A DNA stretch of 64,000 nt, taken from an uncultured Chloroflexia bacterium. Its GTDB lineage: Bacteria > Chloroflexota > Limnocylindria > Limnocylindrales > CSP1-4. Location of the stretch: positions 291,749 through 355,748 of the forward strand of contig CAWEKG010000003.1 of the NCBI GenBank assembly GCA_963809595.1, given 5' to 3'. Of the stretch, positions 9,834-51,660 are shown one piece after another; the first letter of the stretch is position 1; every line of letters starts with the position of its first letter. The notes under the pieces were generated by a model. That model did not search any database. It was given only the letters and a program-made list of their open reading frames with translations, and had not been told where the DNA came from. Made by a program: the position numbers and the translations under genes.

Positions 9834-9855
9834 CCCTCCCCTCGTCGCACGCAGT

Positions 9856-9885
9856 GAGAGAGCCGGCCGACAGGCCGGCTCTCTC
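9856..9885. terminator. bidirectional intrinsic-terminator-like hairpin between convergent genes
   Basis: Perfect 13-bp stem GAGAGAGCCGGCC / GGCCGGCTCTCTC with the 4-nt loop GACA. It lies between the protease stop (9833) and the corrinoid-protein stop (9925). The U-tract is weak, as is common at high GC. Confidence 0.55.
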
Positions 9886-9924
9886 GTTCGAGACGACCCG
9901 TCCGGATCGCCCGCTCCGTCGCGG

Positions 9925-10572
9925 TCAGGCTCCCAGGAGCGTCCGGGCGATGTTCACCGCCCCGACCGCGTCCTCGCCGAACCCGTCGGCCCCGATCTCG
10001 TCGGCCCAGGCCGCCGTGACCGGGGCGCCGCCCACGATGACCTTCACGTCGTCGCGGAGGCCGGCCTCGGCGAGTGCGTGGATCACGGCCCGCTGGCCGA
10101 CCATCGTGGTCGTCAGCAGGGCGGAGACGCCGACCACGTTGGCGCCGACCTCGCGGACCTTCTCGACGAAGCGCTCGGGTGCGACGTCGACCCCGAGGTC
10201 GTGGACCTCGAAGCCGTTGGCCGTGAGCATCATCCCGACGAGGTTCTTGCCGATCTCGTGGATGTCGCCCTTGGCGGTGCCGATGACGACCCGGCCGACG
10301 ACCTGGCGGCGGGATGCCCGGGCGAGCATCTCCGGCTCGAGGACCCCGATCGCGGTCTGCATCGCTCGGGCGCCGGCCATCATGTCGGGCAGGAACATCA
10401 CCCCGCAGCGGAAGTCCTCGCCGACCTGGTGGATCCCCGGCACGTACCCCTCATCGATGGCCACGAGCGGGTCGACCCCGTCGGCCAGGGCCTCCCGGGC
10501 CAGCTCGGCGGCCTCGTCAGGATCGCCGTCGATGATGCTCTGGCGCATCGCCGCGAACAGGTCTTCGTTCAT
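9925..10572 (-). CDS. cobalamin-binding corrinoid protein (MtbC/MttC/MtgC-like)
   Basis: N-terminal helical B12-binding cap plus a Rossmann B12-binding domain. The DxHxxG motif is present (GDIHEIGKNLVG). Good RBS CAGGAGG before the ATG at 10572. Length ~215 aa. Confidence 0.85.
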   Translation of the reverse strand: MNEDLFAAMRQSIIDGDPDEAAELAREALADGVDPLVAIDEGYVPGIHQVGEDFRCGVMFLPDMMAGARAMQTAIGVLEPEMLARASRRQVVGRVVIGTAKGDIHEIGKNLVGMMLTANGFEVHDLGVDVAPERFVEKVREVGANVVGVSALLTTTMVGQRAVIHALAEAGLRDDVKVIVGGAPVTAAWADEIGADGFGEDAVGAVNIARTLLGA

Positions 10573-10669
10573 GGTCGGAGCCTCCTGGGGGTGGGTTGAC
10601 GAGGGTGTCCCGTCCCGGTGACGTCCGGGTGGGACCTGGGGGGCCGGGCGCTGCGCCCGCACGGATCGT

Positions 10670-12103: not shown

Positions 12104-12106
12104 CCC

Positions 12107-34720: not shown

Positions 34721-37456
34721 TCACCTCGACCGGGCCGTCATGGCCCGGGACGGCCGTCGCCTGCCATGAGCGCGCCGGCGGATCAGCCACTTCTCGATCT
34801 CGACCGCAACGAACGCCAGCGTGGACGCGGCCAGCATCACTGCCAGCTCGATGGGGGCGAGCGCCTCCGTCTCGAAGATCGGCTGGAGCGGCGGCAGGTA
34901 GATGATGGCGAGCTGCATGGCGACCGTCGCCGCAACGGCACGCGCCAGCGGCACGTTCGTTCGCCAACCGAGCGTGAAGAAGCTCTCGGTCTCCGAGCGG
35001 ACGGCCAGCGCGTGACCGAGCTGCAGGAACGCGAGCGTCGAGAAGACGATGGTCTGCCAGTGCCAGTCGAAGTTGATGGCCGTCGCCTGCATGCCCAGGC
35101 ACACCCCTCCGATGAGGAGCCCGACCCACAGTGCGTGCTGCCAGAGGCCACGGGCGAAGATCGATTCGCTCATCGGGCGCGGCGGTCTGCGCATCGTGTC
35201 CCGCTCGGCCGGCTCGACGCCAAGGGCGAGTCCCGGCAGGCCGTCGGTCACGAGATTGATCCACAGGATGTGGACCGGCAGCAGGGGCAACGGCAAGCCG
35301 GCGAATGGCGCCAGGAACATGACCCAGATCTCGCCCGAGTTGCCCGTCAGCGCATAGCGGACGAACCGCCGGATGTTGTCGTAGATCCGACGACCCTCCT
35401 CGACCGCCGAGATGATCGTGGCGAAGTTGTCGTCGGCAAGGACCATGTCGGCGGCTTCCTTGCTCACCTCGGTTCCAGCCATCCCCATCGCAACACCGAT
35501 GTCCGCCAACTTGAGTGCGGGCGCGTCATTGACCCCGTCGCCGGTCATCGCGACGACCGCTCCGCGGGTCTTCCACGCCTCGACGATCCGGAGCTTCTGC
35601 TCGGGGTTCGTCCGCGCGTAGACGGCAACGTCGTCGACGAGCCCGTCGAACGCTCCATCGTCCAGCGTCTCGAGCTCGGCCCCCGTGAGCGTCTGCCCGC
35701 CGTCGGTGAGGATCCCGAGCCGGCGCGCGATCGCCTGCGCCGTCAAGACGTGGTCGCCCGTGATCATGACCGGAGTGATACCCGCTGCCCGCGCCGCGGC
35801 CACGGCGTCAGCCGACTCAGGTCGTGGCGGGTCGGCCATCGCGACCAGCCCCAGGAACGACAGGCCCGCCTCGGCTCCACCCAGATCGACGGGCAGCTCG
35901 TCAAGGCTCCGCTCGGCCAGGGCCAGCACGCGGTAGCCCTCGGACGCGTAGCGATCGGCGGCGGCCTGCGCACGCTCCCACGCCTCGTGGTCGACGGGAT
36001 CGCCGAGCGGCGCGAGGGCCTCGACGCCGCCCTTCACCGCGACCCACAGCCGGCCCTGATCGTGGTGGACGGTCGACATCCGCCGGCGGGTGGCGTCGAA
36101 GGCGACCTCCGCGACGCGTGGCAATCGCGCCTCGAGGCTGGGGCGATCGACGCCAAGCTTGCCCGCCAGAGCGAGGAGGGCGCCCTCCGTGGGATCCCCG
36201 GTGATCGTCCACGGATCGCCATCTCGGAGTGGGGCGTGCAGCGTCGCGTCGTTGCAGGCCGCTGCCGCCAGGGCGAGGCGCGGCAGGTACGGATCGCGAT
36301 GCTGGACCGCGTCGCCGGAGATCGCTCCCGTCGGCTCGTAGCCGATGCCGGTGACGCGATGCTCGGCCGCGGGCGTCCAGACCCACTCGACCAGCATCCG
36401 GTTCTGGGTCAGGGTGCCCGTCTTGTCCGAGCACACGACGTTGACGGATCCCAGCGTCTCGACCGCCGGCAGCTTGCGGGTGAGGGCTCGCCGGCTGGCC
36501 ATGCGCTGGGCCCCGAGGGCGAGCGACACGGTCACCACGGCAGGAAGCGCCTCGGGGATGGCCGCCACGGCGAGGCTCACCGCGGTGAGGAACATCAGCT
36601 CGACGGACTCCCCGCGGGCGACCCCAACCACGAAGACGATCGCGCAGACGACGAGGGCTGCAGCAGCGAGCCCCTTGCCGAGTGTCGAGAGCCGGCGCTG
36701 GAGTGGGGTGGGGCCAGCATCATGGGCCTGGAGCAGGTCGGCGATCCGTCCGAGAGCCGTCGCCATGCCCGTCGTCACGACGATCCCGGCACCCCGTCCG
36801 TAGGTCACCGCGGTGCCCTTGAAGGCCATGTTCCGCTGATCGGCCATGAGCGCGTCCGTGACGTCGGGAAGTGCCGCGACGACCTTGGCAGCGGGCTCCG
36901 ACTCGCCGGTCAGCGCAGCCTCGTTGACTCGGAGGGCGGCGGACTCGGTGAGCCGTACGTCGGCGGCGACGATGTCGCCGGTCTCGAGACGGACGACATC
37001 ACCGGGCACCAGCTCGGCGGCCGGAACCTCTGCAACCTCACCGCCCCGCACGACGCGGGCGGTCGGGCTCGTCATCTGCTTGAGCGCGGCCATCGCCTGT
37101 TCGGCGCGGTAGTCCTGGATGAACCCGATCACGCCGTTGAGCACCACGATGGCGAGAATGACGAACGTGTCCTTGAGGTCGCCGATGAGCGCGGTGACGA
37201 TGGCCGCGATCATGAGCACGACGATCATCGTGTTCGTGAACTGCTCGACGAACAGGCGCCAGTGCGGCTTGCGCCCGCGCTCGACCAGCTCGTTCGGTCC
37301 GAACCGGGCCAATCGCTCGGCGGCGTCGGCCACGGTCAAACCCAGCGCCGGATCGGTCGCCAGCGATGCGGCGACCGCAGGCCCTTCGATCGTCCACGGA
37401 CGAGCCGGCACCTGGGGCTGATCGATCGTGGCTCGCGTCACGCTGCAGACCTCCAC
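34721..37456 (-). CDS. cation-transporting P-type ATPase (P2-type, Ca2+/Mg2+-ATPase-like)
   Basis: 911 aa with the phosphorylation motif DKTGTLT, a TGES-type actuator motif (TGESEP), GDGVNDAPAL and ten TM helices. Confidence 0.9.
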   Translation of the reverse strand: MEVCSVTRATIDQPQVPARPWTIEGPAVAASLATDPALGLTVADAAERLARFGPNELVERGRKPHWRLFVEQFTNTMIVVLMIAAIVTALIGDLKDTFVILAIVVLNGVIGFIQDYRAEQAMAALKQMTSPTARVVRGGEVAEVPAAELVPGDVVRLETGDIVAADVRLTESAALRVNEAALTGESEPAAKVVAALPDVTDALMADQRNMAFKGTAVTYGRGAGIVVTTGMATALGRIADLLQAHDAGPTPLQRRLSTLGKGLAAAALVVCAIVFVVGVARGESVELMFLTAVSLAVAAIPEALPAVVTVSLALGAQRMASRRALTRKLPAVETLGSVNVVCSDKTGTLTQNRMLVEWVWTPAAEHRVTGIGYEPTGAISGDAVQHRDPYLPRLALAAAACNDATLHAPLRDGDPWTITGDPTEGALLALAGKLGVDRPSLEARLPRVAEVAFDATRRRMSTVHHDQGRLWVAVKGGVEALAPLGDPVDHEAWERAQAAADRYASEGYRVLALAERSLDELPVDLGGAEAGLSFLGLVAMADPPRPESADAVAAARAAGITPVMITGDHVLTAQAIARRLGILTDGGQTLTGAELETLDDGAFDGLVDDVAVYARTNPEQKLRIVEAWKTRGAVVAMTGDGVNDAPALKLADIGVAMGMAGTEVSKEAADMVLADDNFATIISAVEEGRRIYDNIRRFVRYALTGNSGEIWVMFLAPFAGLPLPLLPVHILWINLVTDGLPGLALGVEPAERDTMRRPPRPMSESIFARGLWQHALWVGLLIGGVCLGMQATAINFDWHWQTIVFSTLAFLQLGHALAVRSETESFFTLGWRTNVPLARAVAATVAMQLAIIYLPPLQPIFETEALAPIELAVMLAASTLAFVAVEIEKWLIRRRAHGRRRPSRAMTARSR

Positions 37457-37462
37457 AGGCGA

Positions 37463-37669
37463 TCAGGTCCGCGCCGGTCGATGCAACGTGGTCGGCTGTC
37501 GAATGACCCCGGACCACCCGCCGCCCTCAGCCTCGATGAGGCGCTCGAGCTCCCCGTGGTCGAGGAAGATGCCCCGGCAATCCTCGCACTGCTCGACGAC
37601 CACCCCGCTGCGGTCGTAGAGGCACATCCGGCCGCCGCACTTGTGGCACGCGGGCCCCTCGGGCGGCCT
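37463..37669 (-). CDS. zinc-ribbon domain protein (zf-TFIIB/FmdB-like)
   Basis: Two CxxC pairs (CHKCGG...CEDCRG). Immediately upstream of the P-type ATPase. Confidence 0.5.
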   Translation of the reverse strand, partial: RPPEGPACHKCGGRMCLYDRSGVVVEQCEDCRGIFLDHGELERLIEAEGGGWSGVIRQPTTLHRPART

Positions 37670-38073
37670 CATCGTGCGGCTGTCCGCGATGGCCATGCCA
37701 GTCGGTCGGGTGGGATCGCACGGGCCGACGTTCGCCCGAGCATGACGCTGGCGAGACCGGCCGTGAACGAGGGATAGAGGTTGGTAGCCATGCGCAGCCT
37801 CCGGCATCATCGAGCCGAAGGTCTCGCCCGCTCGCGTCGCGGGCCGCGGGACCGGGCGACATGTCGCCGTGATGACGATCCAGCGGTCGAGGGCTACTCC
37901 CCTTCGATGCTTATTCTATGGTCCCCGCCGGCGTGCCGCTGCGAGCCGAAAGTCACAAGTGATCGAGTCGGACATCCCGCCAGTGCCGGCAGGCCCCTTC
38001 GCAGCCCGAGATACGGGTGTTGACTCAGCGGCGCCGTCCATGATGGTCGTCGGCCCGCGGGTGCGGTGATGGT

Positions 38074-38745
38074 TCAGTCCTCCTCACCGTCCTCGAAGTC
38101 CGGCCAGGCCGCGATGTCTACGCCGTGGTTCTCCGGCGAGGCGAGCGTCCACCAATGGGGCACGTGCGAATTGTCAACCAGGCGCCCTCCCGCTGCGAGT
38201 GCCGCGGCGACCCGTGCCTCGGCCTGATCAGCGGGGACGCTGACGTCGATGTGGGTCCGGCCCCGGCCGGGCTTTGGTGGACGGAGGCGCTGGAACGACA
38301 CGTGAGGATTGCGTCGGTGCCGATCGACGACGTCCTCACCTGCCCCGAGACTCTTGTACCCGAGGGCTGCGGCCCAGAACGGACCTACGTCGCTGCCGGC
38401 ATCCTGTGCTACGGCGATCCCGACGACCTGTACCTGGGAGGGGTCTGATTCGACCCGCAGTGTCCGGGCCTCGGCCGAGATCCGGCGCGCCAACTCGACA
38501 TCACGGTCGCTCAACGCTCCGTACTCGCCCGACGCGGTCCGGACTGTGACGCCATCGGGCCGAAGGTCAACATCGGGAAAGTGGCCCACTGCCTGGGCGA
38601 TGTCAGCGATCACGGTCACGAATCTGGCGCCTTGCGCGAACGACCCCGCACGGAAATAGGCGTGGGCGCCCGAGAAGAGGACCCGCCAGTCCTCGACTCC
38701 GTCGGCGTCGTGGAAGGCTTTGGCAGTGGTTCTGCGGTCGCTCAT
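38074..38745 (-). CDS. pterin-4a-carbinolamine dehydratase-like domain fused to a VOC/glyoxalase-like domain
   Basis: The N-terminal ~95 aa match the PCD fold (WRVLFSGAHAYF...VDLRPDGVTVRT). The C-terminal half is VOC-like. Confidence 0.55.
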   Translation of the reverse strand: MSDRRTTAKAFHDADGVEDWRVLFSGAHAYFRAGSFAQGARFVTVIADIAQAVGHFPDVDLRPDGVTVRTASGEYGALSDRDVELARRISAEARTLRVESDPSQVQVVGIAVAQDAGSDVGPFWAAALGYKSLGAGEDVVDRHRRNPHVSFQRLRPPKPGRGRTHIDVSVPADQAEARVAAALAAGGRLVDNSHVPHWWTLASPENHGVDIAAWPDFEDGEED

Positions 38746-39226
38746 CGGGAACGCCCTCCTAGCCCACCGCCTTCTTCACGAGCGCGGCGAGCTTCTCTTC
38801 GTCCTCTGGGGTCGACTTCTCGATCCCCCACGAGGTTGCCCACATCGATCCGTCATCGATCATTCATCATGCGGCGGAGACAACTCTACGTTCTCGAGTT
38901 CGGCAGACTCCGGGCCTCGAGGTACGACCAAGTCCAGGGTTCGGGTAGGCCGGTCAGCGGAAGAGCACTCGTTGGCGCCGCTTGCCGGCACCGGTCGCGG
39001 ACGCCATGCCGAAGGCAAGGTCGTTTACGTCGCTTCGCCAGCGGAGTCCGGTTCTTCACCGTCTGGCAGCTCGGGCTGCCTAGTTCGCATCGGACAATAG
39101 TCGCTGTCTCGTGTTTACGACCCTGTCGCAGCGTGTCAATAGTTGCTGACAGTGACGGGGTGCCGGGAGGCACCAGCAACTGTGGGCGCCCTACAGTCGC
39201 TGAGCTCACGCTCAAACCGAGAGAAG

Positions 39227-39288
39227 TGGAGCCGACACTCGGATTTGAACCGAGGACCTGCTGTCTACGAAACAGCTGCTCTACCGCC
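39227..39288 (-). repeat. 3' fragment (62 nt, D-arm to CCA) of tRNA-Thr(CGU), with 1 mismatch to the intact gene at 41557-41631
   Basis: GGCGGTAGAGCAGCTGTTTCGTAGACAGCAGGTCCTCGGTTCAAATCCGAGTGTCGGCTCCA (minus strand). The 5' acceptor arm is missing. It abuts the stop of the TetR gene and reads like an att-site remnant. Confidence 0.8.
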
Positions 39289-40054
39289 CTTGGTCACGCT
39301 CAATCCGTGCGTTGGGGGGTAATCCGCTTGGGGGGTGACTTGGGGGTGATTCAGCCGAGAGGCGAAGCGGAGAGGTTGGCAGCTCGGCAGGGAGGTCGAA
39401 CCGATCGGTCGGCATGAGCTGCCAGCGGAGCGCCTCGGAGAGCCAATCGCGAAAGGCCGGTGGGGCCCACCCGCGCTGGTTCACCAGCAGGTGGTAGAGC
39501 CCGGGATCGTTCAGTGCCCAGACGGCGTCGGCGGCGGCGACCAGGTCAAGGTCCTCGCGCAGGCCCCCGCGTGCCTTCACGCCCGCCACGACGTTCCTGG
39601 CTCCGCCGAGACGCTCGGCCACGACCTTCTCCCAGACTTCCCGCGCCTCCGGGTCTGCGCTGGCTGCTCCTCGGACTGCCTCATAGATGGGCGCCAGACG
39701 GCTGTGCACGTCAGTCATGATCCCGGCGTAGCCGTCGAGGAAGGCCGCGGGATCGGTCCGGGCCATCACGGCCCGCGACTCGGGCCGGTCCGGGAGCGCG
39801 ACCGGGGCATCGTCACCGACGAGCGCGACGTCGTAGGCGGCCTTCAGGATCGCCGCCTTGCCGCCGACCGAGTTGAAGACCGTCGCCCGGCTGACACCGG
39901 CGGCCTCGGCGATAGCGTCGATCGACGTCAGGACATATCCGTGCTCGATGAAGAGTCGGCCGGCTGCCTGGAGGATGGCGAGGCGAGTGGACGCCGCCTG
40001 CGCCTGTCGCAGCGGTGACCGATATCGGCGCTTGACAGGGTCGGTCATGTCCAC
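39281..40054 (-). CDS. TetR-family transcriptional regulator
   Basis: TetR HTH (TSIDAIAEAAGVSRATVFNSVGGK). The Pro-rich C-terminus overlaps the tRNA fragment by a few nt. Confidence 0.8.
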   Translation of the reverse strand: MDMTDPVKRRYRSPLRQAQAASTRLAILQAAGRLFIEHGYVLTSIDAIAEAAGVSRATVFNSVGGKAAILKAAYDVALVGDDAPVALPDRPESRAVMARTDPAAFLDGYAGIMTDVHSRLAPIYEAVRGAASADPEAREVWEKVVAERLGGARNVVAGVKARGGLREDLDLVAAADAVWALNDPGLYHLLVNQRGWAPPAFRDWLSEALRWQLMPTDRFDLPAELPTSPLRLSAESPPSHPPSGLPPNARIERDQGR

Positions 40055-40108
40055 TAGATTGCCAGTCTAACCAACATATCAACAGTATAGCGGAAGTGAG
40101 GGAGCCCG

Positions 40109-40552
40109 ATGACTGTAGCGGTCGGCATCGATCCCCTGGCCGTCGTCGAGCGGCTCCGGGCGGCCATCAACACGCATGACCTCGATGCGCTGGTCGGCTG
40201 CTTCACGCCGGGCTACATCAGCCAGGCGCCCGCTCATCCCGCCAGGGACTTCGTGGGTCGCGACCAGGTGCGCCAGAACTGGGGCCAGATCCTGGCCGGC
40301 GTCCCCGATCTGCGAGCCGAGCTCGTCCGCTCGACCGTCGTCGCCGACATGGTCTGGGCCGAGTGGGACTGGACCGGGACGCGTCGCGACGGGCAGCCCC
40401 ACCACATGGCGGGCGTGACGATCCAGGGTGTCGAGGGCGACGCCATCGCCTGGGTCCGTTTCTACATGGAGGTCGTCGAGGCCGGCGGGCAAGGACCTGA
40501 ATTGGCCGTGCGTGAGCGTGTCGGCGCCCCGATCATCGGAGTCGAGTCGTGA
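40109..40552 (+). CDS. SnoaL-like/NTF2-like family protein
   Basis: 147 aa with the NTF2-like pattern (LRAAINTHDLDALVGCFTPGY...). Confidence 0.6.
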   Translation: MTVAVGIDPLAVVERLRAAINTHDLDALVGCFTPGYISQAPAHPARDFVGRDQVRQNWGQILAGVPDLRAELVRSTVVADMVWAEWDWTGTRRDGQPHHMAGVTIQGVEGDAIAWVRFYMEVVEAGGQGPELAVRERVGAPIIGVES

Positions 40553-41469
40553 CCACCCTGCTCGTCGGCGGAACCGGCCACCTCGGTCCCGGACTCATCC
40601 GCCTGCTGAGCGCGAACGGGCGCGGGCCGCGGGTCCTGACGCGCGATCCGGCGCGAGCCCGCGGAGTCCTGGGCGATGGCGTCGAACTGGTGGCCGGGGA
40701 CGTCCGCGATTCCGTGAGCCTGACCGGAGCGCTGGAAGGGGCCACAACGGTCATCTCGGCGTTCAGCGGCTTCGGCGATCCGAAGGGACCCGGTCCGCGG
40801 GCGATCGACCGGGACGGCAACATCGCGCTCATCCGCGCGGCTCGTCTCGGTGGCGTCGAGCACTTCGTGCTGCTGTCCGTCACGCAAGCCTCGCCAGACC
40901 ATCCGATGGAGCTCATGCGCTCCAAATACGCGGCCGAGCAGGAACTCAAGTCGTCCGGTCTCGCCTGGACGATCATCCGACCGGCGCTCTACATGCAGAC
41001 CTGGCTCCACACTGCCGCCGACCCGCTTGTTGAGACGGGCCGGACGCGGGTCTTCGGTCGGGGCGACAACCCGCTGAACCTCGTTTCGGCCGATGACGTC
41101 GCCCAGATCGTCGAGCTCGCGCTCGTCGATCCAGCTCTGCGCGGCGCCATGCTGGAGGTCGGCGGCCCGGAGAACGTGTCGATGAACCAGCTACTCACCA
41201 CCGTCGAGCGGGTGACCGGCCGGTCTGGTCGGGTGGATCACGTCCCGCTGCCGGTGCTCCGGCTCATGTCGAATTTATTGCGCCCGATCCGCCCGGCGCT
41301 GGCGGGCCTGATCGGCGCGGCCGTCGTGATGGACACGCGGGACATGTCATTCGACGCCTCGGCGACGGCGCGGCGCTTCCCATCCATCACCCCGACCTCG
41401 CTTGAGGCCGTCGTCCGCGGGCTCTATGACCCCGATGGGCAGGCGAGCGGCGCCACGGTCCGGGAATGA
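40549..41469 (+). CDS. NAD(P)H-binding NmrA-like/atypical SDR family protein
   Basis: N-terminal GxxGxxG (LLVGGTGHLG) and NmrA-like features. Overlaps the preceding gene (ATGA). Confidence 0.75.
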   Translation: MTTLLVGGTGHLGPGLIRLLSANGRGPRVLTRDPARARGVLGDGVELVAGDVRDSVSLTGALEGATTVISAFSGFGDPKGPGPRAIDRDGNIALIRAARLGGVEHFVLLSVTQASPDHPMELMRSKYAAEQELKSSGLAWTIIRPALYMQTWLHTAADPLVETGRTRVFGRGDNPLNLVSADDVAQIVELALVDPALRGAMLEVGGPENVSMNQLLTTVERVTGRSGRVDHVPLPVLRLMSNLLRPIRPALAGLIGAAVVMDTRDMSFDASATARRFPSITPTSLEAVVRGLYDPDGQASGATVRE

Positions 41470-41556
41470 TCACCGGCGTAAGCCCATTCCCCGGCGGGCC
41501 AGCATCGGACAGAAGTCAGGAAGCCGGCCTCGCGGCCGGCTTCCGGTTGGGATTAC

Positions 41557-41631
41557 TGGAGCCGACACTCGGATTTGAACCGAGGACCTGCTGTTTACGA
41601 AACAGCTGCTCTACCGCTGAGCTATGTCGGC
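41557..41631 (-). tRNA. tRNA-Thr (anticodon CGU), with encoded CCA
   Basis: Folds into a cloverleaf: acceptor GCCGACA/TGTCGGC, D-arm GCTC-AGCGGTA-GAGC, anticodon arm GCTGT-TTCGTAA-ACAGC, T-arm CTCGG-TTCAAAT-CCGAG, discriminator T, then CCA. Confidence 0.9.
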
Positions 41632-41990
41632 GCCGATCAAGAATAGCCGATGCTCAGGGACATCAGCTATTCGCGCTTATGCGAACACGTTTGACATCGT
41701 GCTCAAAACCCTGGCACAACGCTCGAACAGCTGATGACTATTTGACGAACCTCCGGCTCGTCCCAGGAGACAAGAACGCTCGTTCTATAGCAGCGACCTC
41801 GCTCGAGGGTCAGCCGCCCGACGAACGAGCCGCTGGCTTCGAATCAGGTGCCAAACCCAAATCCAGGTCAGAGGAAATTCTGCGATGGCGTCTGACGACG
41901 TCGGCCGACTCCTGTCGGCGCGCTTCTGAACACTTGTTTTGTTCTGCGTGGGCTCTATGGGCGAGGCCGCTTGCTGATCAGCCGACGGGG

Positions 41991-43668
41991 TCAGCTGCCC
42001 TGCTTGCACTCCGTCTTATCGACCCACGTCGTGCAGACCGCGATCTCGATGCGCAGGGGCGACTCGGGGTGGAGGGTGATCTGTCCGCCGAGCGGCGGCT
42101 GCTGGAACAGGTAGAGCATCCCGCCGTCATCGAGGCGCTGCTTGCCGAGTATCTCCATGCCCAGGGTCGCTAGCCGCTGATCCCAATACGCTTCCACCTC
42201 GTCCTCCGAGGCCGTGCTGGCCAGGAAGAGGATGCAGTTGTTCGGCAGAGCGGGGTAGGTATCGGTCTCCGAGGAGCCGGGCAGGCCCTGCGCCAGCTGG
42301 CGCGCCGTCTCGATGCATACTCCGGCCGATCCGCTGGGGCCGGCGCTGGCGGCCTCGCTGGGGCCCTCGCTGGGGCTCGGCGACGCATTCGGCGTGTGGT
42401 ACATGACGTCGAGGAGGGCGAAGCCCGATGGTCGCATCACCATATTCAGCGTCGGCTCCATAGCCTGGTACAGGGCCTTGACGGTCGATCCGGCGGGAGA
42501 GCCGGCGGCGTCCCCAAGCAGGATCGACTTTGACGACCGCGGCGAGGGCGGTCATCTCGGCTCGATCGACCCACGCGTTGACCCACATCTGGGCGGTCAC
42601 CGGATCCCCGTTGTCCGCAGTGTCTTTGCTTTCGGTTGCCGTCTGGTAGGTCAGCGCGGCAACGCCGGTGTCGTCGACCTGCGATTGCCCGGCAACATCG
42701 GTGGCGTGCGCGCCCAGGCCGCTGGAGTCCCAGACGACCGACGACCCCTCGACCGGGACCGACGCCAGCTGGGCATCGGCCAGCGAGGCACAATCGGCGA
42801 CGTCGTCGGCGAAGACGTCCGCGCCGGAGAGCACGGTCAGGTCGACCTCGCCCTCGACCGGGTCCTGGCCCTCGATGCCGTAGGCGACGGCGGCCGGGTC
42901 GGGCACCAGGCTCACCGTCCACGGCCGAGCCAGGCTCGTTGCGTAGCTCAGGAGCGCAAGCGCGCCGATGGTCTTTTGGAGCAGCCCGGGGTTGTCCTTG
43001 TACTGCGGCGCGTAGAGGTCGATCAGCTGCTTCAGCCACGCCGGCGGGTCCGCCGTGGAGTTGACGATGCCGTTCAGCGCATCGGACAGGTAGGCCGAAA
43101 TCTCGGCGCAGTAGCCCGAGCTGGAGACCAACCGGATGGATGCACCGGAACTCACGGCGCCGCTGCCGCCGTCGACGTCGGCCACAAAGGCGACCAGAGC
43201 GAGCGTCGGGAAGACCTTCGCCGTCGGCTCCAATGCGCCGCCCGTACCGACGAGGGATGCGGCCAGGGTTGCTCCCGGGGTGGTTCCCGCAGCGGCCCAG
43301 GCGGCGATGAGCGCACTGACCGGCCCGCCGCCGCCGGCAGAGGTCAACGCGTCGAGGTCCGCGCCTTTCGTGCCACCCCCACCCGCACGTTCGAGGGCGA
43401 GGTTGCGGACCTGGAGGCGGAGGAGCCGGACCGCCGACCGTTTGCCCGTGACGGCCGCGATGGGAGCAGCATCGGACGGCCGAACCCGGGTCTCGATGCC
43501 GAGTCTGGCGAGATCGTCGACCGCTTGCTGCACATCTGCCTGGCTGAATGCCCCCGCGCCCGGGGTCGGACCCGGGGAGGACGCACCGCCGGATCCCGTC
43601 CCCGATGGGGTCGAGCTGCAACCCGCCAGGATCACGAGCGTCATGGCGCCGGCCAGCAGCGTCCTCAC
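41991..43668 (-). CDS. large lipoprotein of unknown function, apparently frameshifted near 42470
   Basis: Signal peptide plus lipobox LAGCSS. The body is in the 42127..43794 frame up to ...AVVKVDPAW. The protein-like continuation (DAAGSPAGSTVKALYQAMEPTLNMVM... to ...KQGS*) is in the 41991..42461 frame. The switch falls in a GGGG run. Confidence 0.55.
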
Positions 43669-43708
43669 GCGGGATCGGTGCCGAGGATCCGCGCCAGATC
43701 TGTTCACG

Positions 43709-44278
43709 TCAGTGGATCGCGGCGAGCACCGCCTGTGCGACGGCGACCGCGTCGTCCTTGCGGTCCTTGCCCGAGGGATCGTAGATGTCGACATAGAGTG
43801 CGCCCTGGTCCGGCGAGAGCTTCACCGTGAGGTAGGTTTCGTCCGAACTCGGATGCACCACGAAGGCCGCCGCTCCCAGCCCGGAGACGTCCTCCTGGCC
43901 TGGAGCTGGTACACCGCCGCCGACGCCCGTGTCGCTGGAAGCGAGGGTGACCTGGAGTTGGATCGTCCCATCGGAGTACGTGCATTCGTACGGAGGAAAC
44001 GTCTGGCTTTTCGGCGGCGGAGCGCTGGGGACGACCCCGGCGGCGAGATCAGGGGTCACCAGAGTGCACACGTCGGTCACCTTGCTGGCCGCGTCGACCA
44101 GGGACGTGCCGCCGTCTCCGCCAGTCGTCGACGGCTGGGTCTCGGCCGAGGGTTGCGACTCGCTCGAAGGCTGCGACGCCCCGGCCGACTGGTCCGCGCC
44201 CGCAGGCGGGTTCGCCGTCGAAGCCCCGCAGGCCGATAGCATCAAGCCGACGAGACCAACCATCACTATGCGCTTCAT
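43709..44278 (-). CDS. DUF3558-like actinobacterial lipoprotein
   Basis: Lipobox LSAC after MKRIVMVGLVGLMLSAC, an S/Q/P-rich linker and a conserved CTLVTP block. RBS GAGGA before the ATG. Confidence 0.65.
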   Translation of the reverse strand: MKRIVMVGLVGLMLSACGASTANPPAGADQSAGASQPSSESQPSAETQPSTTGGDGGTSLVDAASKVTDVCTLVTPDLAAGVVPSAPPPKSQTFPPYECTYSDGTIQLQVTLASSDTGVGGGVPAPGQEDVSGLGAAAFVVHPSSDETYLTVKLSPDQGALYVDIYDPSGKDRKDDAVAVAQAVLAAIH

Positions 44279-44387
44279 GGCATCCTCAGCCCTGCGGCGA
44301 CCGCGCCGCTGCGAATGATGCTCCAGACAAGTGTGCCCGTTTGTATCAGCCCGCCACGCTCGTAGCACTGCGCTGAGGGCGAGAGAC

Positions 44388-44424
44388 TTACGAAACGGCT
44401 GCTCTACCGCTGAGCTATGTCGGC
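44388..44424 (-). repeat. 5' half (nt 1-37) of tRNA-Thr(CGU), followed by a non-tRNA sequence with a conserved motif
   Basis: GCCGACATAGCTCAGCGGTAGAGCAGCCGTTTCGTAA (minus strand). It diverges after the anticodon loop into GTCTCTCGCCCTCAGCGCAGTGCTAC...CTGATACAAACGGGCACAC, shared with the copy at 48286-48322. Its upstream flank is homologous to the region upstream of the intact tRNA. Confidence 0.75.
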
Positions 44425-44593
44425 CCGGGTTTCACGCTCAGTCACACCTATGACTGGCGATTCCAACGAATCCACTGCGCGACCGCAATGGCGATACAAC
44501 GAGAGTCTTCGAGACCTACGACGACGTCCGGCCGTGCCGATGTTAGCGCACCCGGCGATTCGTCCTACAGAGCGACCTCGTTCGCGCGCGCTG

Positions 44594-45187
44594 TCAAGCG
44601 AGTGGTAGTCGCCTCTCAAGCCACGTTGCAAGGAGGTCCGACACTAGGCTGACTGCTTCCTCGCTCGTCCGACCTGCCTCTTGGAGCGAGCCGATGACCC
44701 ATCGACCGAACACAGTCAACACCACCGCCACGGCATCCTCGTCCGAAGACAGCGGTCCGAGCGCCGTGCGGACGAGCGCATCGAGCTGTAGGTAGAATTG
44801 GGCCTCGGCATCGGCCCAGAACGAGACACCAGGGCCTTCACGTTGCGACGCGCGATACCACGACTCGCTTCGATCGAAGAACGCCGACAACTCCCGGACG
44901 AGGAGATCGACCCGATCTCGCAGCCCCACGACCCCGTCGAATATTTCCGGCGTCGGCATCCGTAGTTCACTCAAGATCTCCCCGGTGACCTCGGTCGCCA
45001 GCGCGGCGGCGGACCCGAAGTGGTTGGCGACCGTCCCCGGAGCGACATCGGCTCGCCGGGCGATGTCGAGCATCGTCGTCGACGAGACGCCCCGCTCCTG
45101 GTACAGCTCCAGGGCCGCGGCGACGATCCGGCGGCGCGTATCCGCCTGCTGCACCGCCCGCTTCCCGAGCTCGTACTTCCTTGGCAA
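44594..45187 (-). CDS. TetR-family transcriptional regulator
   Basis: TetR HTH (TTMLDIARRADVAPGTVANHF). Length 197 aa. Confidence 0.8.
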   Translation of the reverse strand: MPRKYELGKRAVQQADTRRRIVAAALELYQERGVSSTTMLDIARRADVAPGTVANHFGSAAALATEVTGEILSELRMPTPEIFDGVVGLRDRVDLLVRELSAFFDRSESWYRASQREGPGVSFWADAEAQFYLQLDALVRTALGPLSSDEDAVAVVLTVFGRWVIGSLQEAGRTSEEAVSLVSDLLATWLERRLPLA

Positions 45188-45316
45188 TCGGCTGTCTCTC
45201 CAATCTATTGACTTAATGATGCATCCATTATAGCATCGTGCCGTCGACCACCGCCGACGGCCGTCTGCTCATCGCGATGGTAGGTATGTCGTCGCCCAGA
45301 GATGAGGACCTGAGGC

Positions 45317-45828
45317 ATGAATTGGGCGGAACTCTACCCGTGGCTGCTCGTATTCCACGTCTTGTGTGTGCTCGGGTTCCTCGCGATCCACGGCGTGTCG
45401 ATGGGTGTCTGGTGGCGCGTCCGTCGCGAGCGCGACCGAGTGACATTCGCCGCATGGTTCGACCTGTCGGCCGGGTTCATGACGCCGATGCTGGTCACCG
45501 GCCTCCTGCTCATCGTGAGCGGCATCGTCGTCGGGATCGCGGCAGGGTGGTGGTTCAACGGCCAGTGGTGGCTGTGGGTGTCCGTCGTCCTGCTCGCCGT
45601 CATCGTCCTGTCGATGAACTCGCTCAACGCCATCCCGATGGTCGAGATGCGGCGTGGGCTCGGGATCCCGAGCCTGGCGGACCGCGCGGCTGGCACAAGT
45701 CGTGAGGCCGGTGGACGATGCGACCCTCGACACCCTCCTGCGTGACCGCCGTCCGCTCATCGGCAGCGCGCTTGCGATCGTCGGGATCGTCGTGGTCACG
45801 TGGCTGATGGAGTCCAAGCCGTTCTGAA
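45317..45828 (+). CDS. DUF2269-like integral membrane protein, apparently frameshifted near 45690-45740
   Basis: 4-TM protein. The plausible C-terminus (...LLRDRRPLIGSALAIVGIVVVTWLMESKPF*) lies in a different frame ending at 45828. Confidence 0.5.
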
Positions 45829-45855
45829 CGACCGCTCAGTGCGGCAAGAGGATCG

Positions 45856-46446
45856 ATGATGGTGACTAGATCGCTGGTGGTGGGGGAGGCGCGAACGGGG
45901 CACGACCTCGGAGACGCTGGCCGGCGGGCCGCTCAGGCGGCGGCTGGTCTGACGATCTGTGGCGCGACGGCCCTAGCCGCGTTCTTCGCGGTCGGCGAAC
46001 CATGGGGCACACTCAACGACACTCTGTCGATCGGCTTGGCCTGGTCCACATTGCCGATCGCGATCGACCTGGCTCGGCGGCATCCGGGGTCGCGGCTCCT
46101 TGGTCTCGGCGTCGTCTCTGATCTGTTCGGCGTCACCACGACGACGCTCTTCACGTCGCTGCTGATCTCGCGCCGGATGACCTTCGAGGACAGCCTCCTG
46201 CCGATCCTCACCGGCCAGGCGTTCATCGGTGCCTGGCTCATCCTCGCGGGCGCGTGGGCCTGGTCGCACCAAGGATCCCGCCGCGTGTCGGTGCTGGGCA
46301 TCGCCGGCGGCACGGGCCTCGTGGCGACCGCCGCCGGAATCGCGACGGGCGGCATGGAGAGTCCGGTCGCAGCCGTCGGGTTCATCTCGGCCCTTGTCGG
46401 CACGACTGGCTTCTACGCGCTCCTGGGTCTCCGGCTCGCTCGATGA
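45856..46446 (+). CDS. integral membrane protein (5-6 TM), unknown function
   Basis: Hydrophobic helical composition. Tandem with a similar gene at 46555. Confidence 0.45.
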   Translation: MMVTRSLVVGEARTGHDLGDAGRRAAQAAAGLTICGATALAAFFAVGEPWGTLNDTLSIGLAWSTLPIAIDLARRHPGSRLLGLGVVSDLFGVTTTTLFTSLLISRRMTFEDSLLPILTGQAFIGAWLILAGAWAWSHQGSRRVSVLGIAGGTGLVATAAGIATGGMESPVAAVGFISALVGTTGFYALLGLRLAR

Positions 46447-46554
46447 CCGACTAGCTGAAGGAGGGCTGATCGCTTTGATCGCCGCCCGCGCCGGTCATGG
46501 CTGCTGCTCCCGGTCCTGACGCTCCAACTACACGACCTGCATGAGGAGTCAACG

Positions 46555-47118
46555 ATGGCATCAGAAAGCCTGCTATCAATGTCCGGGATGCGCCTCGCCG
46601 GGCTGGCCTCACTCGCGAGTGCCGCAGTCGCTACAGTTGCTGTGATCCTTCTGTTCGCGATGTACGGCGCTTTCGGCGTCGGGGCGGCGTCCGCCGGCCA
46701 GACGTTCGGCGGGATCAATGACGTACTCACCTTGGTCGCTTATGTGCTGGCGGTGCCGGGTGTCCTGGCGACCGCGGCTATCCTCAGGTCTTCTCGTCCG
46801 GGTCTCGTTTCCCTTGGGGCGCTCGTCGCGCTCGCGGCACTTGGCGCGATCGCTGTGCTTCAGTGGCAGCTGGTCACGGGTGCCGTGACGTTCGAGCAGC
46901 AGATCGGACCGGTCTCGGTGGCCTTCCTTGCCCTGGGTGGGTGGTACGTCCTCTCCGGCTACTTGGGCGCGGGCGTCCTCCCCTATGGTGTCGGGATCGG
47001 TGCGCTGGCCGCGCTCTACGTCGGCTATCCGGTGCTCGCCTACCGCTTGGGTCGCTCGCTGGTGGCGAGGACCGGGGGTGTTGTCCAACCGCCAAGGGCG
47101 ATTGGCGAGGTGCAATGA
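46555..47118 (+). CDS. integral membrane protein, unknown function (similar architecture to the 45856 gene)
   Basis: Ala/Gly/Leu-rich TM helices. Length 187 aa. Confidence 0.45.
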   Translation: MASESLLSMSGMRLAGLASLASAAVATVAVILLFAMYGAFGVGAASAGQTFGGINDVLTLVAYVLAVPGVLATAAILRSSRPGLVSLGALVALAALGAIAVLQWQLVTGAVTFEQQIGPVSVAFLALGGWYVLSGYLGAGVLPYGVGIGALAALYVGYPVLAYRLGRSLVARTGGVVQPPRAIGEVQ

Positions 47119-47324
47119 CAAGCGTGGGAGATCGAGTCTGGATGAGGTGACCCCATTCGTCAGACGATGACGCCTGCGGCCCGCAGCATCGATCCTGGAC
47201 GGGCGCGCCGGCGACGCAGGTCGACAGATGATGGTGCATGCCGGCGAGGGCCAAGCATCCCTTCGAGCCGTGGCTTCTTGCGGACGGGACAAGACGAGAT
47301 AGGACAAGGGGAAGGAGAATCCCG

Positions 47325-47933
47325 ATGACGATGCGGGCCGGCGAGGTCTACGAACATCCCGGCGAACGATTGGTGGTCAGAGTCGGAACTGCCGAGTCTC
47401 AGGGCCGCGAGCTGATCATCGATCTCTACGTCCCGGGCAATGCGCCCGGGGTGCCGCCTCACCTTCACCCGCAGATGGAAGAGGCGCTCACGGTCATCCG
47501 AGGCAAGGTCGAAGTCATGTCACCGGATGGAGGGTGGCGGCTGGTTGGACCCGGCGAGCGCGTCGTCATTCCGGCGAACACGGCGCACAGTTGGCGGCCG
47601 GTCGGCGAAGACATCCGGATTCTGGGAGAGGCTCGCCCCGGGGCGAGATTCGAGGAGATGTGGCGCCAGTTCCTGGGCCTGTCGATGGACGAGAAGCTGG
47701 GCCCGAAGGGAGACCACCTGCCCTTCCTCCAGGCGATGGCGATGATCCGCGAGTTCCCGGACGTTATGGCGCTGGCCGGACCGCCAGTATTCCTGCAGCA
47801 CGCGCTGGCCGCGGTCCTCGCGCCGATTGCACGGCTCCGCGGATACAGGGGCAAGTATGAGGAGTACCTGAACCGAGGACCCTCCATGACCGTCGAACTC
47901 GAGCCGCTGCCGGTCTTTCCCTTGAAGCAATAG
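47325..47933 (+). CDS. cupin-domain protein
   Basis: Strong RBS GGGAAGGAGAA before the ATG. Cupin beta-barrel motif region (GVPPHLHPQMEEALTVIRGKVEV...IPANTAHSW). Confidence 0.7.
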   Translation: MTMRAGEVYEHPGERLVVRVGTAESQGRELIIDLYVPGNAPGVPPHLHPQMEEALTVIRGKVEVMSPDGGWRLVGPGERVVIPANTAHSWRPVGEDIRILGEARPGARFEEMWRQFLGLSMDEKLGPKGDHLPFLQAMAMIREFPDVMALAGPPVFLQHALAAVLAPIARLRGYRGKYEEYLNRGPSMTVELEPLPVFPLKQ

Positions 47934-48285
47934 CGTCCATTGAGCCACTCAGCTACATAGAGCAGACCTCGAGACGGCGTATCTATTGTGCGACCCTCTC
48001 CGCGAACGATGCCGCCGTGCTGCTCGATCGTCCACCCCGGTCCCAAGTCGACACGATGGCCGGCGAACGTACGATGACTCCCACTGTGCCGAGTGGCCAA
48101 GACCCTGACTCTTGGATCAGCCTACGATCTTATGAGACGATTCCGAGTAGCTAGGGTCCGTTTGGAGGCAGGCCGGCCGCAGCGTCGATCCTAGGCGAGC
48201 ATCCACTCGAAAGCGTATAGCTGATATGTGTGCCCGTTTGTATCAGGTCTCCACTCGGGGTAGCACTGCGCAGAGGGCTAGAGAC

Positions 48286-48322
48286 TTACGAAACAGCTGC
48301 TCTACCGCTGAGCTATGTCGGC
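48286..48322 (-). repeat. second 5'-half copy of tRNA-Thr(CGU), with the same downstream motif and upstream promoter-like flank
   Basis: GCCGACATAGCTCAGCGGTAGAGCAGCTGTTTCGTAA, followed by GTCTCTAGCCCTCTGCGCAGTGCTAC...GAGACCTGATACAAACGGGCACAC. About 130 bp upstream (48323-48460) aligns with the flank of the intact tRNA (41632-41760). Confidence 0.75.
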
Positions 48323-48569
48323 GCGAGCGCCAGTATAGGTGATGCTCGTGGGACATCGGCTCTTCGAGGCTGAGGGAGTGCGCTCGCGGACTTGCGTCAA
48401 TGCCGGCGCAACGCTCGTGCAACTGATGACTGTGAGGCAGCGGCACCGGTGGTGGATCCCGTGGACGGGTCGACGCTGGTGCGGAGACGGAAGCGCCTAG
48501 CCCCGCGAGATCGGCCCTCCTCGATCGTCTCTTCGGCCCCGTCGCACGTCTGGTGCGGCTCGGGTTCGC

Positions 48570-49304
48570 TCAGCCGGGCCGGAAGTCGATCGACTGGATG
48601 ATGCGATGGAGCTCATCCCGGATCGAGGGAGACATGTCGACGGTCCGCGAGGTCTGGGCCACGAAGCGAACCCCATTGACGTCCACGATCCATGCCTCGT
48701 TGACGCGGCCTGGCGCGTCGGCAGCACCGAGCCAGAAGACCGAGTCATCCGTGACCGGTCGCCCAGCCTCCAGGTGGGCGCCGTCCCAATACCGGAACTC
48801 GGCGATCTGGTCCCGGTCGCAGTCGGTGATGTCGACGCCGTCGGCGACCGCGAACTCGATGCGGAGCCCGTCGAAGCCGTCGAGGGTGATCGGGACAGCT
48901 GGCGCCGCATCAGTGAGGTGCTGTCGGTCAAGGGCGGTCGCCAGTTCCGCGACCGACGCGCCCGCCGACGGGTCGACCGGCCCCTTCTTCCAATGGCAGG
49001 GGTCCGCGTACACGTTGCCGACCAGCCAGAACCCGACCATCGCCGGGGCGGTGCCACCTCCCGCGACGGGCACTTCCTTGAAGAACAGATCGCAGCCATC
49101 CCAGCCCTCGGTCAGGGTGATCGACAGGGGAACGGGCGTCGCCTGGTCCGATGCGACAGTCCACGTCCCGGCCTCGCCTCGCACGCCCGCCGGGCATGAT
49201 GCCGTCATCGGGCTCGACCTCGGCGTCCCGGCGCACGCCGCGAGAACCACGGTCACGAGGACCAGAGCGAGCAGGGCCCGAGACATCGGGGTGACCTCCA
49301 GCAA
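48570..49304 (-). CDS. lipoprotein of unknown function
   Basis: Lipobox LAAC after MSRALLALVLVTVVLAAC. Length 244 aa. Confidence 0.55.
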   Translation of the reverse strand: MLEVTPMSRALLALVLVTVVLAACAGTPRSSPMTASCPAGVRGEAGTWTVASDQATPVPLSITLTEGWDGCDLFFKEVPVAGGGTAPAMVGFWLVGNVYADPCHWKKGPVDPSAGASVAELATALDRQHLTDAAPAVPITLDGFDGLRIEFAVADGVDITDCDRDQIAEFRYWDGAHLEAGRPVTDDSVFWLGAADAPGRVNEAWIVDVNGVRFVAQTSRTVDMSPSIRDELHRIIQSIDFRPG

Positions 49305-49445
49305 GATGGTCGCGACGGGACGGTCGCGGCCTTACACCAACGAGATGCCGTCGAAGGCCGCGCGGTTGGGTGCAAACCGAATCCCGCCGACCGGCATCTG
49401 GACAAGCGGCGCCACACTGGATCACGACCCGAGAGGGGATTCCTG

Positions 49446-50042
49446 TTGGACACGCTGGGCGCGCGAGACCGCATCGCGACATCGCCGGATGATGGCCTCA
49501 TCCGACGTGCGCGATCGGGTGACGCCGCAGCGTTCGACGCCCTGGTCGCGACCCGGGTCGATCGTTGCTATCGCCTGGCGTGGTCGATCCTGAACAGCGA
49601 CGCGGACGCGGCCGACGCGACCCAGGAGGCCTTCGTGTCCGCGTGGCGGGAGCTTCCCCGTCTGCGTGACACTTCCGCCTTCGATGGTTGGCTCAATCGG
49701 ATCGTTGCCAACGCGGCGCGGATGTCGCGGCGTCATCGCATTCGCCTCCGCGAGGTCCACATCCGTGAGGCCAGGGCCGATGGGGCGACGTTGGAAGCCC
49801 GCGAAGATCCGGCCGACCCGGCCGCCCATGCGGAGATCGATCGCGTCGCCGAGAGCGACGCGATCGGCCGCGCATTCGATCGATTGCGGCCCGAGGACCG
49901 CGCGATGCTGGCCTTGCATCACGTCGAGGAGCGACCCGTCCGGGAGATCGCCCGTTCGCTCGGCATCCCGGTCGGCACGGCCAAGTGGCGTCTCCATGCC
50001 GCGCGACGGGCGCTGGAGAAGGCGATGGAGGCCGAGTCGTGA
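49446..50042 (+). CDS. ECF-family RNA polymerase sigma factor
   Basis: Region 2 (DATQEAFVSAWRELPRL...) and region 4 (ERPVREIARSLGIPVGTAKWRLHAAR). TTG start. Length 198 aa. Confidence 0.85.
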   Translation: MDTLGARDRIATSPDDGLIRRARSGDAAAFDALVATRVDRCYRLAWSILNSDADAADATQEAFVSAWRELPRLRDTSAFDGWLNRIVANAARMSRRHRIRLREVHIREARADGATLEAREDPADPAAHAEIDRVAESDAIGRAFDRLRPEDRAMLALHHVEERPVREIARSLGIPVGTAKWRLHAARRALEKAMEAES

Positions 50043-51619: not shown

Positions 51620-51660
51620 CGCATGACGTAGTAGCCCCACGTGTTCGTGGTGGCTGGCGC

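Follow-up and report, generated by a model that had tools for sequence, protein, structure and literature searches.

A probable integration hotspot at the anticodon loop of a tRNA-Thr(CGU) gene, with integrase-less islets on both sides, in an uncultured Chloroflexia bacterium

The locus described here raises the question of how a single working tRNA gene came to be surrounded by pieces of itself. It lies in a 64,000-nucleotide (nt) stretch of contig CAWEKG010000003.1 (assembly GCA_963809595.1) from an uncultured Chloroflexia bacterium, which is called the window throughout and in which ARAGORN detects only one tRNA, a tRNA-Thr(cgt) on the minus strand at 41557-41631 that has an Rfam score of 72.6 bits and is taken to be functional. 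Two 5' halves of the same gene are found upstream of it, at 44.4 and 48.3 kilobases (kb), and one 3' fragment is found downstream, at 39.2 kb, with all three pieces on the minus strand like the intact gene. It is thought probable, for the reasons set out below, that the locus is a hotspot for site-specific integration on the anticodon loop of tRNA-Thr(CGU), with three integrase-less islets around one working gene.

In the linear numbering used here the gene runs from nt 1 to nt 75 and the anticodon loop, TTCGTAA, occupies nt 31-37. The 5' half at 48286-48322 (c1) is identical to nt 1-37 of the gene at all 37 positions, the half at 44388-44424 (c2) holds the same nt 1-37 with one mismatch (T28C), and after the last base of the loop both change to the same sequence, GTCTCT.GCCCTC.GCGCAGTGCTAC...CTGATACAAACGGGCACAC. 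A 19-mer shared by the two copies after this junction occurs exactly twice in the window, against 0.02 occurrences expected. No 3' half follows either c1 or c2, the only 3' halves in the window being at 39231-39258 and 41561-41588. The 3' fragment at 39227-39288 covers nt 15-75, matches the gene at 61 of 62 positions (the change is A37G) and is still recognised by Rfam at 26.7 bits, with its junction of the attR type and that of c1 of the attL type. An earlier reading made from the letters of this DNA, without database searches (the sequence-only reading), had described the same four copies, namely one intact gene, a 62-nt 3' copy with one mismatch and two copies that hold nt 1-37 only and break after the anticodon loop, and both ARAGORN and alignment bear this description out.

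The position of the break is not peculiar to this genome. An exact-pattern scan with the 19-mer through species-representative genomes and Joint Genome Institute (JGI) metagenomes gave chance matches together with at least four true homologues, two of them in metagenome-assembled genomes labelled 'uncultured Chloroflexia bacterium' (L002, L004) and two in soil contigs that represent one sequence (L006, L007). Two further loci, L019 and L020, were reached through the 90%-identity cluster of a 244-amino-acid (aa) protein encoded beside c1, and further loci, among them L021, through 90%-identity clusters of proteins encoded in the insert. The junction seen at c1 is also present in L002, L004 and L006/L007 and twice in L021, so that there are seven 5' copies from at least five genomes, all of which break at one base, nt 37 followed by GTCTC. 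The halves are nearly unmutated, five of the seven being identical at 37/37 and c2 having its one mismatch, in flanks that are only ~80% identical; the half in L004 keeps just the 3'-proximal ~23 nt, with one mismatch, its first ~14 nt having been lost or replaced. The 3' fragments in L020 (14645-14689) and L021 (19138-19182) start exactly at nt 31, the first base of the loop. As the 5' pieces end at nt 37 and these 3' pieces start at nt 31, the overlap between them is exactly the 7-nt loop TTCGTAA, which would be the signature expected of strand exchange inside the anticodon loop.

The arrangement before any insertion can be seen in the relatives. L019 and L020 are syntenic with window 51625-48558 at 87-92% identity (87-91% for L019), and L019 is an empty site, with one undivided tRNA-Thr(CGU), no half and none of the sequence that follows the halves. 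This single-tRNA empty site contradicts a suggestion of the sequence-only reading that a tandem tRNA array had been disrupted twice. L020 also has an undivided tRNA-Thr, together with one 3' fragment and no half. The promoter of the tRNA in L020 (12347-12506) aligns with window 48448-48286, which is the flank of c1 and c1 itself, at 80% over 164 nt, whereas only 38 nt of it align upstream of the intact gene, and the last 31 nt of the L020 promoter are 87% identical to the c1 flank against 63% to the promoter of the intact gene. It is therefore apparent that c1 is the native 5' half, still attached to the native promoter (P0, 48323-48448, minus strand), and that 6.7 kb of inserted DNA now separates it from the working gene. 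A -10-like TATACT immediately precedes nt 1 in P0, which is separated from the syntenic 244-aa gene by 118 nt and now has only the displaced half joined to it.

The insert consists of two modules, E1 (3.9 kb, from 48285 to 44388) and E2 (2.8 kb, from 44387 to about 41595), each of which starts with a conserved arm of ~180-230 base pairs (bp) in its full form and ends with a tRNA 5' half of its own, c2 being the right end of E1. The arm of E1 occupies 48104-48285 on the minus strand (GTCTC...GCGCAGTGCTAC...GATACAAACGGGCACAC.TATCAGCTAT.CG...GCCTAGGATCGACGC...) and shares 81-82% identity with those of L002, L006 and the first of the two units of L021 (L021_A). The arm of E2, at 44326-44387 on the same strand, is truncated; together with its half it is 95% identical to the second unit of L021 (L021_B), whose arm is full length, so that the arm after c2 is short by ~233 nt. 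Past the junction c1, L002 and L006 are homologous for ~200 nt at ~81%, with unrelated genes around them, and across all copies the arm is kept at 81-95% identity beside cargo that is entirely different. The sharing of a sequence after the halves is thus real; put at ~55 nt by the sequence-only reading, it is in relatives an arm of ~180-230 nt, of which the copy at 44326-44387 is a truncated form. The arm probably represents the element-side arm of an attachment site.

Both modules have been met elsewhere. Window 44326-41557, that is E2 and the intact gene, corresponds to 9954-12720 of L021, a 417-kb contig with unrelated flanks which has E2 only of the two modules, at 98.4% identity over 2771 nt, and the homology stops exactly at the tRNA's 3' end. 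The adjoining c1-type unit of L021 is only 82% identical to that of the window. As E2 is found in two contexts at far higher identity than its neighbours, it is a unit, with tRNA-derived sequence at either end, and its presence at this identity in different contexts hints that such modules may be moved in trans. The order in L021 is a first half with its arm (unit A, at 82% identity with the c1 unit), then 3.4 kb of other cargo, a second half with its arm (unit B), which is preceded by a promoter like that of the working gene in the window, then the E2-homologous DNA, a different downstream block of 6.4 kb and the nt 31-75 fragment. The core of E1 (genes for a TetR regulator, a DUF2269-like protein, a DUF6220-like protein and a 174-aa protein) is present in ten soil contigs at 87% identity to window 44589-45861 and 46564-47077, and directly downstream of it L023, L024, L026 and L029 have a complete tRNA-Thr(CGU), with L027 starting inside the 5' half of that tRNA. 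An E1 core joined to an unsplit tRNA corresponds to the c2 junction before it was split, and would be the intermediate expected if E1 rebuilt the gene before E2 entered. Neither E1 nor E2 is present in the syntenic relatives L019 and L020. The tRNA copies delimit DNA that varies between strains, contrary to the outcome by which the sequence-only reading was to be refuted.

How these pieces could have been assembled is best pictured as follows. E1 and E2 would be islets of the '5'-fragment' type, in whose attachment site the arm lies to one side of the loop and nt 1-37 to the other. An exchange of strands within the loop, probably by a tyrosine recombinase whose existence here is hypothetical, would connect the 5' half that enters with the 3' half already in place, so that the gene stays intact, and the resident promoter and 5' half would be displaced outward and left fused to the arm. 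E1 would have entered first and E2 would then have entered the rebuilt gene. The outcome of this presumed order would be c1 as native promoter, native half and E1 arm, and c2 as the E1 half and E2 arm, with c2 having provided the working gene with its 5' half before E2 came in. A module's own 5' half would thus rebuild the tRNA gene, and E2 would also have supplied the promoter that now drives it. The third islet, from 41556 to 39289, would be of the usual 3'-fragment type and would have left the nt 15-75 fragment. The working tRNA-Thr is accordingly best regarded as a probable chimera, with a 5' half from E2 and with nt 15-75, in part or in whole, possibly derived from the 3' islet. That ordinary 3'-end integration does not account for the 5' halves, as the sequence-only reading had argued, is upheld.

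The promoter of the working gene (P2, 41632-41742, minus strand) agrees with an arrival from outside. It is homologous to other tRNA-Thr promoters, with 81% identity to that of the intact gene in L002 and 87% to that upstream of L021_B, and resembles the promoters of the syntenic relatives less than P0 does. It carries a conserved box, CATCAGCTGTTCGAGCGTTGTGC, near -104. This box, at 41722-41744 and 48425-48447 in the window and also in L002, L019 and L020, is found ~104 nt upstream of every tRNA-Thr(CGU) copy, the empty-site genomes included, with a shared part of 13-18 nt (ACA.TTATCAGCT.TTCG), and it resembles both the anticodon-arm sequence of the tRNA (GCAGCTGTTTCG) and an arm block (TATCAGCTATTCG). 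The idea that extended homology between the promoter arm and the motif arm marks nested relic copies was considered and dropped, the box being all that they have in common and being native to tRNA-Thr promoters; as it is present even in the empty-site genomes it gives no evidence for element-specific arm sites, and it may be the site of a regulator.

A number of observations weigh against this explanation. The first is that no integrase or other recombinase, PF00589 included, was found by Pfam among all the likely genes of 34-54 kb and in the rest of the window, which is filled with housekeeping functions such as haem and pantothenate synthesis and sugar transport (one scan of this remainder listed 25 of its 30 matched families, the remaining five being weak), and NCBIfam scans of the unknown proteins found no integrase either. 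The same is true of L002, L004, L006/7, L019, L020 and L021, from scans or precomputed Pfam matches, where the only transposase belongs to an insertion sequence in the downstream block of L021. The remark of the sequence-only reading that no integrase remains therefore holds for the whole window, and, as none is present in the related loci, the modules have presumably decayed or been moved in trans. Secondly, no circular or attP form was seen among the sequences compared. Thirdly, upstream of c2 there is only a patchy match to the distal part of the promoter and no recognisable tRNA promoter, so that the claim of homology between the upstream flanks of both halves and the intact gene's promoter clearly holds for the copy at 48286 and is reduced, for the copy at 44388, to this patchy distal match. 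Fourthly, no half or arm was found within 10 kb upstream of the E1 core in the metagenome contigs that carry it, where the E1-core DNA may be in its native context. Finally, the 3' flank of the intact gene (41520-41556, minus strand), which contains a terminator hairpin (GGAAGCCGGCC...GGCCGGCTTCC), is of a type shared with L019 and not with L021; L019 11728-11839 is 90% identical to window 41631-41520, tRNA and terminator-type flank together, and L019 has no 3' fragment within 9 kb, so that either this flank or that of the 3' fragment may be the native one.

The lack of any recombinase gene near any of the copies is what gives some weight to a different history, in which there was one ancient disruption of the tRNA followed only by RecA-dependent homologous recombination, with halves, promoters and arms acting as portable homology and no dedicated recombinase at work today. 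The repeats would offer 37-230 bp of homology for such exchanges, and the one truncated arm and the one half with its first ~14 nt lost or replaced are what would be found in relics. This history does not explain the founding junction at the edge of the loop, nor the nt 31-75 fragments that start at its other edge. It also sits poorly with the arms themselves, in which the blocks GTCTC, GCGCAGTGCTAC, CAAACGGGCACAC (exact in 7/7 copies), TATCAGCT (6/7) and GCCYAGGAYCG.CGC are kept through the seven copies while the bases between them vary, a pattern that suggests maintained binding sites. The halves, essentially unmutated beside ~80% flanks, speak in the same direction, with the caution that gene conversion could account for them too. 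Recombination between repeats as the sole mover of these modules is thus unlikely.

Less likely again is that the tRNA was split without being rebuilt. In the 'tRNA-dependent lysogeny' of actinobacteriophages the host tRNA is not rebuilt and the phage carries a whole tRNA gene (Guerrero-Bustamante & Hatfull 2024, PMC10865867), so that a mechanism for this exists, and an element whose common core was short (the loop, or nt 15-37) could in the same way have split the host gene here whilst bringing a complete one. The two situations are alike in that a site used by a tyrosine integrase lies inside a tRNA gene and the element supplies the tRNA function. The promoter of the intact gene looks foreign and its terminator hairpin is clean, and in both the window and L021 a 3' fragment lies downstream of the gene. 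The lower-GC (guanine plus cytosine) non-coding flank of the 3' fragment (38746-39226, first bases CTTCTCTCG...) resembles the 3' flank of the undivided tRNA-Thr in L002 and in L023/L024, with L023 63-131 being 95.7% identical to window 39219-39287, and joining c2 to the 3' fragment and flank of the window would give the arrangement found in L023 and L024.

Against such splitting stands the tally of the pieces. The window has two halves and one 3' fragment, as has L021, which leaves one orphan junction in each, L002 has one half and no 3' fragment, and L020 has one 3' fragment and no half. In L002 the half is followed by the intact tRNA-Thr(CGU) in the same orientation after 1.9 kb of other cargo, in which are a TetR gene and one unknown gene, and no 3' fragment was found within 5 kb. 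The two kinds of fragment therefore occur independently of one another and are not pairs. In addition, the 98.4% homology of the window and L021 halts at the tRNA's 3' end, with no shared body of an element beyond it, and in L019 a promoter of native type and the flank of terminator type are linked without any junction. There are no phage genes here, and the arm has no match in viral contigs. The sequence-only reading had offered insertion at the anticodon loop without restoration as one possibility, of which the target and the position of the junctions at the loop stand; the data fit a gene rebuilt by the 5' half that was carried in, with the halves unpaired, and not one left unrestored.

That the promoter, 5' half and ~200 nt after it form a selected non-coding RNA gene, unrelated to integration, is very improbable. 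A -10-like box is retained upstream of c1 and of the halves in L002 and L006, and the half, like parts of the arm, is strongly conserved from genome to genome, as it would be in such a gene. An Rfam scan at E<=1 returned, however, only matches to tRNA, namely the intact gene and 3' fragment, besides a single antisense match across the tRNA that is below threshold and due to chance, and no other RNA family. In consensus folding with alifold the covariation term was unfavourable (+0.58 with 3 sequences, +4.84 with 5) and many pairs were broken, and a CTGATA/TATCAG inverted repeat is broken in L021 without compensation. The arm is therefore read as a DNA site and not as RNA, and the short hairpins that the sequence-only reading saw in it find no covariation support and no Rfam match. 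A functional RNA gene would also be at odds with c2, which lacks a promoter and has a truncated arm, and with the absence of the unit from the syntenic relatives. When the arm was looked for in plasmids and phages, blastn gave only tRNA matches and exact-pattern scans of viral contigs gave no match. An intron-containing or split tRNA, in which nt 37 would be followed by an intron or by the leader of a split gene with its 3' half downstream or in trans, can be dismissed: the group I introns of bacterial tRNAs do sit in the anticodon-loop region, where the break falls, but neither half is followed by a 3' exon, Rfam matches no intron family and protein genes fill the intervals.

Integration at the loop thus remains the favoured explanation, and within it a bolder version can be put forward only tentatively, being on balance doubtful. 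The modules might form a live, cassette-like system in which the ~200-bp arm and the 5' half together are the recombination site and the recombinase, provided by the host or by a helper elsewhere, would put the cargo blocks in and take them out at the anticodon loop.

The islet on the 3' side, 39289-41556, is enclosed by the intact gene and the nt 15-75 fragment and so has the standard 3'-type signature. Its cargo consists of a TetR gene (~39376-40048, minus strand), a SnoaL-like gene (40109-40552, plus strand) and an NmrA-like gene (40549-41469, plus strand), as assigned by Pfam, and the block 39376-41480 is 81% identical to one found elsewhere in the close relative L020 (248-2352). Just inside the islet by the 3' fragment are three direct G-rich repeats (TTGGGGGGTAA, TTGGGGGGTGA, TTGGGGGTGA; 39312-39351, plus strand), of a kind that is clustered nowhere else in the window and does not occur in 16 loci (L001-L016). 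These repeats could be candidate arm-type recombinase sites of the 3'-side islet. A weaker TAATCCCAAC occurs just after the intact tRNA, at 41545-41556. The description of the 3' fragment and the TetR-SnoaL-NmrA genes as a classic att signature without an integrase has therefore survived, with the same block found elsewhere in L020 and the repeats abutting the fragment. The TetR open reading frame (ORF) extends ~60 codons beyond its Pfam domains (window 39281-39375), through the G-rich repeats, and stops at a TAG at 39281-39283 in the tRNA fragment; the TetR homologue in L020 is only 181 aa, so this tail is probably not coding.

In L021 an exact 13-mer, GACCTGCTAACTG, is found at 12791-12803, 71 nt after the tRNA, and at 19071-19083, 55 nt before the 3' fragment, which is just inside both ends of the 6.4-kb downstream islet of that locus. 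It is also found in L024 (5828-5840, minus strand), 84 nt after the tRNA, and not in the window; ~0.005 exact chance matches are expected in 162 kb.

Turning to the cargo of the upstream modules, E1 (44425-48103) encodes on the plus strand a cupin (47325-47933), two unknown proteins (46555-47118 and 45856-46446) and a DUF2269-like membrane protein (45317-45745), and on the minus strand a TetR regulator (44594-45187). The counterpart of the gene at 45856-46446 in related metagenome contigs is a DUF6220 protein. E2 (41743-44325, minus strand) has ORFs for a lipoprotein (43709-44278), for another protein that is secreted or lipoprotein-like (~42650-43670) and for a small one (41991-42461 or 41991-42590). 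The long ORF of E2, which might have hidden a recombinase, is that of the secreted/lipoprotein-like protein and has no family match, and this candidate was set aside. The lipoproteins, TetR regulators, membrane proteins and cupin that had been noticed between the copies agree with the Pfam annotation.

The cupin gene has a history of its own. L004 has a cupin in common with E1, beside its arm, and TetR-cupin pairs recur in L004, L011 and L018. The cupin gene of the window (47310-47915) is 92% identical to 4162-4767 of the soil contig L017, with the homology limited to the gene and entirely different neighbours, and it appears that the gene moves as a very small unit. Its use as a marker for further copies of the arm led nowhere, as none of its homologues at 75-92% identity (L011-L014, L017, L018) has an arm nearby. 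In L011 (8892-8967, GCA_046727235.1) the TetR-cupin pair stands beside a tRNA-Lys(CTT) and a DUF87/TraG-like ATPase gene, which may be an integrative element at another tRNA with related cargo.

Variation around the tRNA is not confined to the islets. The spacer between the 244-aa gene and the native promoter (48449-48566) is replaced by ~1 kb in L019 (10653-11705) and in L020 by 4.6 kb (7750-12346) with a gene for a RES toxin domain and an AF_1845-family gene, and is thus a further variable spot, one without bounding tRNA fragments. In the more distant L015 the synteny (anti-sigma factor, extracytoplasmic function (ECF) sigma factor and 244-aa genes) ends at the stop codon of the 244-aa gene, window 48566 against L015 4932-4947, and beyond it are genes for prephenate dehydratase and LeuA and no tRNA. 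As these two genes are absent from the window, the tRNA-Thr region is placed differently in the lineage of L015, which was consequently uninformative. In the genes at ~38-52 kb (window 37400-52000) third-position GC has values of 0.76-0.86, as compared with 0.90-0.96 for the housekeeping genes on either side, a difference that would fit a wide zone about the tRNA of genes that are acquired or weakly expressed.

Integrase-less elements of this general kind are known from streptococci, in which cis-mobilisable elements (CIMEs) sit beside integrative and conjugative elements (ICEs) and form accretion arrays. As in CIMEs, att-type sites bound the cargo at both ends of E1 and E2, in the form of an arm junction and a 5' half, there is no recombinase gene and stacking is in tandem at a tRNA-type site; the differences are that no helper element is visible here and that the polarity is 5' and not 3'.

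The closest parallel is provided by the Islander database, in which 159 of 3919 islands have a 5' fragment of the tRNA gene (tDNA) and 2083 have an attP centred on the anticodon, and in which the rule is that a 5' fragment lies upstream of the tDNA and a 3' fragment downstream (Hudson, Lau & Williams 2015, PMC4383910). The locus shares with the 5'-fragment islands an intact tDNA and a cognate end fragment that points the same way, with the 5' fragment upstream, as well as a crossover at the anticodon loop and tandem arrays at one tDNA. The fragments, their orientation and their configuration follow that rule, strain variability and an empty site are both present, and the crossover segment, judged from the junction sequences only, is the 7-nt loop, which corresponds to the anticodon-loop ('A') att sublocation. 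What is missing is the integrase gene that Islander requires in an island (PMC4383910). The islets differ in addition in that the modules are of 2-4 kb, that islets of the 5' and 3' types flank one gene, that there is a conserved arm of ~180-230 bp and that the hosts are uncultured high-GC soil bacteria. The last suggestion of the sequence-only reading, an unknown tRNA-derived repeat, is thus unnecessary, this being a recognised class of tDNA island (PMC4383910).

A further comparison can be made with the tycheposons of Prochlorococcus, in which successive integration at one tRNA displaces older elements outward (bioRxiv 10.1101/2020.12.28.424599). There too partial tRNAs mark old events, and degenerate elements and foreign-host flanking DNA accumulate. 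Tycheposons carry tyrosine recombinases and their islands are described as growing on one side of the tRNA (bioRxiv 10.1101/2020.12.28.424599), whereas growth here is two-sided and recombinase-less. The mechanism itself is therefore an ordinary one, and the 5' halves have an established explanation that lay outside the list offered by the sequence-only reading. What is new is this family, which in uncultured high-GC soil bacteria combines a conserved arm, integrase-less modules of 2-4 kb and arrays to either side of a single tRNA-Thr gene.

The locus offers a base-resolved case of the minority 5' polarity of tRNA-targeted integration, beside the usual 3' polarity and at the same loop. It indicates that a single tRNA gene can seed variable DNA on either side of itself and have its promoter exchanged by the incoming DNA. 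For annotation it is a warning that a 5' tRNA half with a conserved arm is the border of an island and not a pseudogene or a new RNA gene, and island finders that filter on integrases would overlook all three islets. If the cassette-like version were true, integron-like arrays would be built up in uncultured high-GC soil bacteria on the upstream side of tRNA-Thr(CGU), with every new cassette replacing the promoter of an active tRNA gene. Modules that proved to be mobilised in trans would be a compact cassette system of soil lineages that have been little studied.

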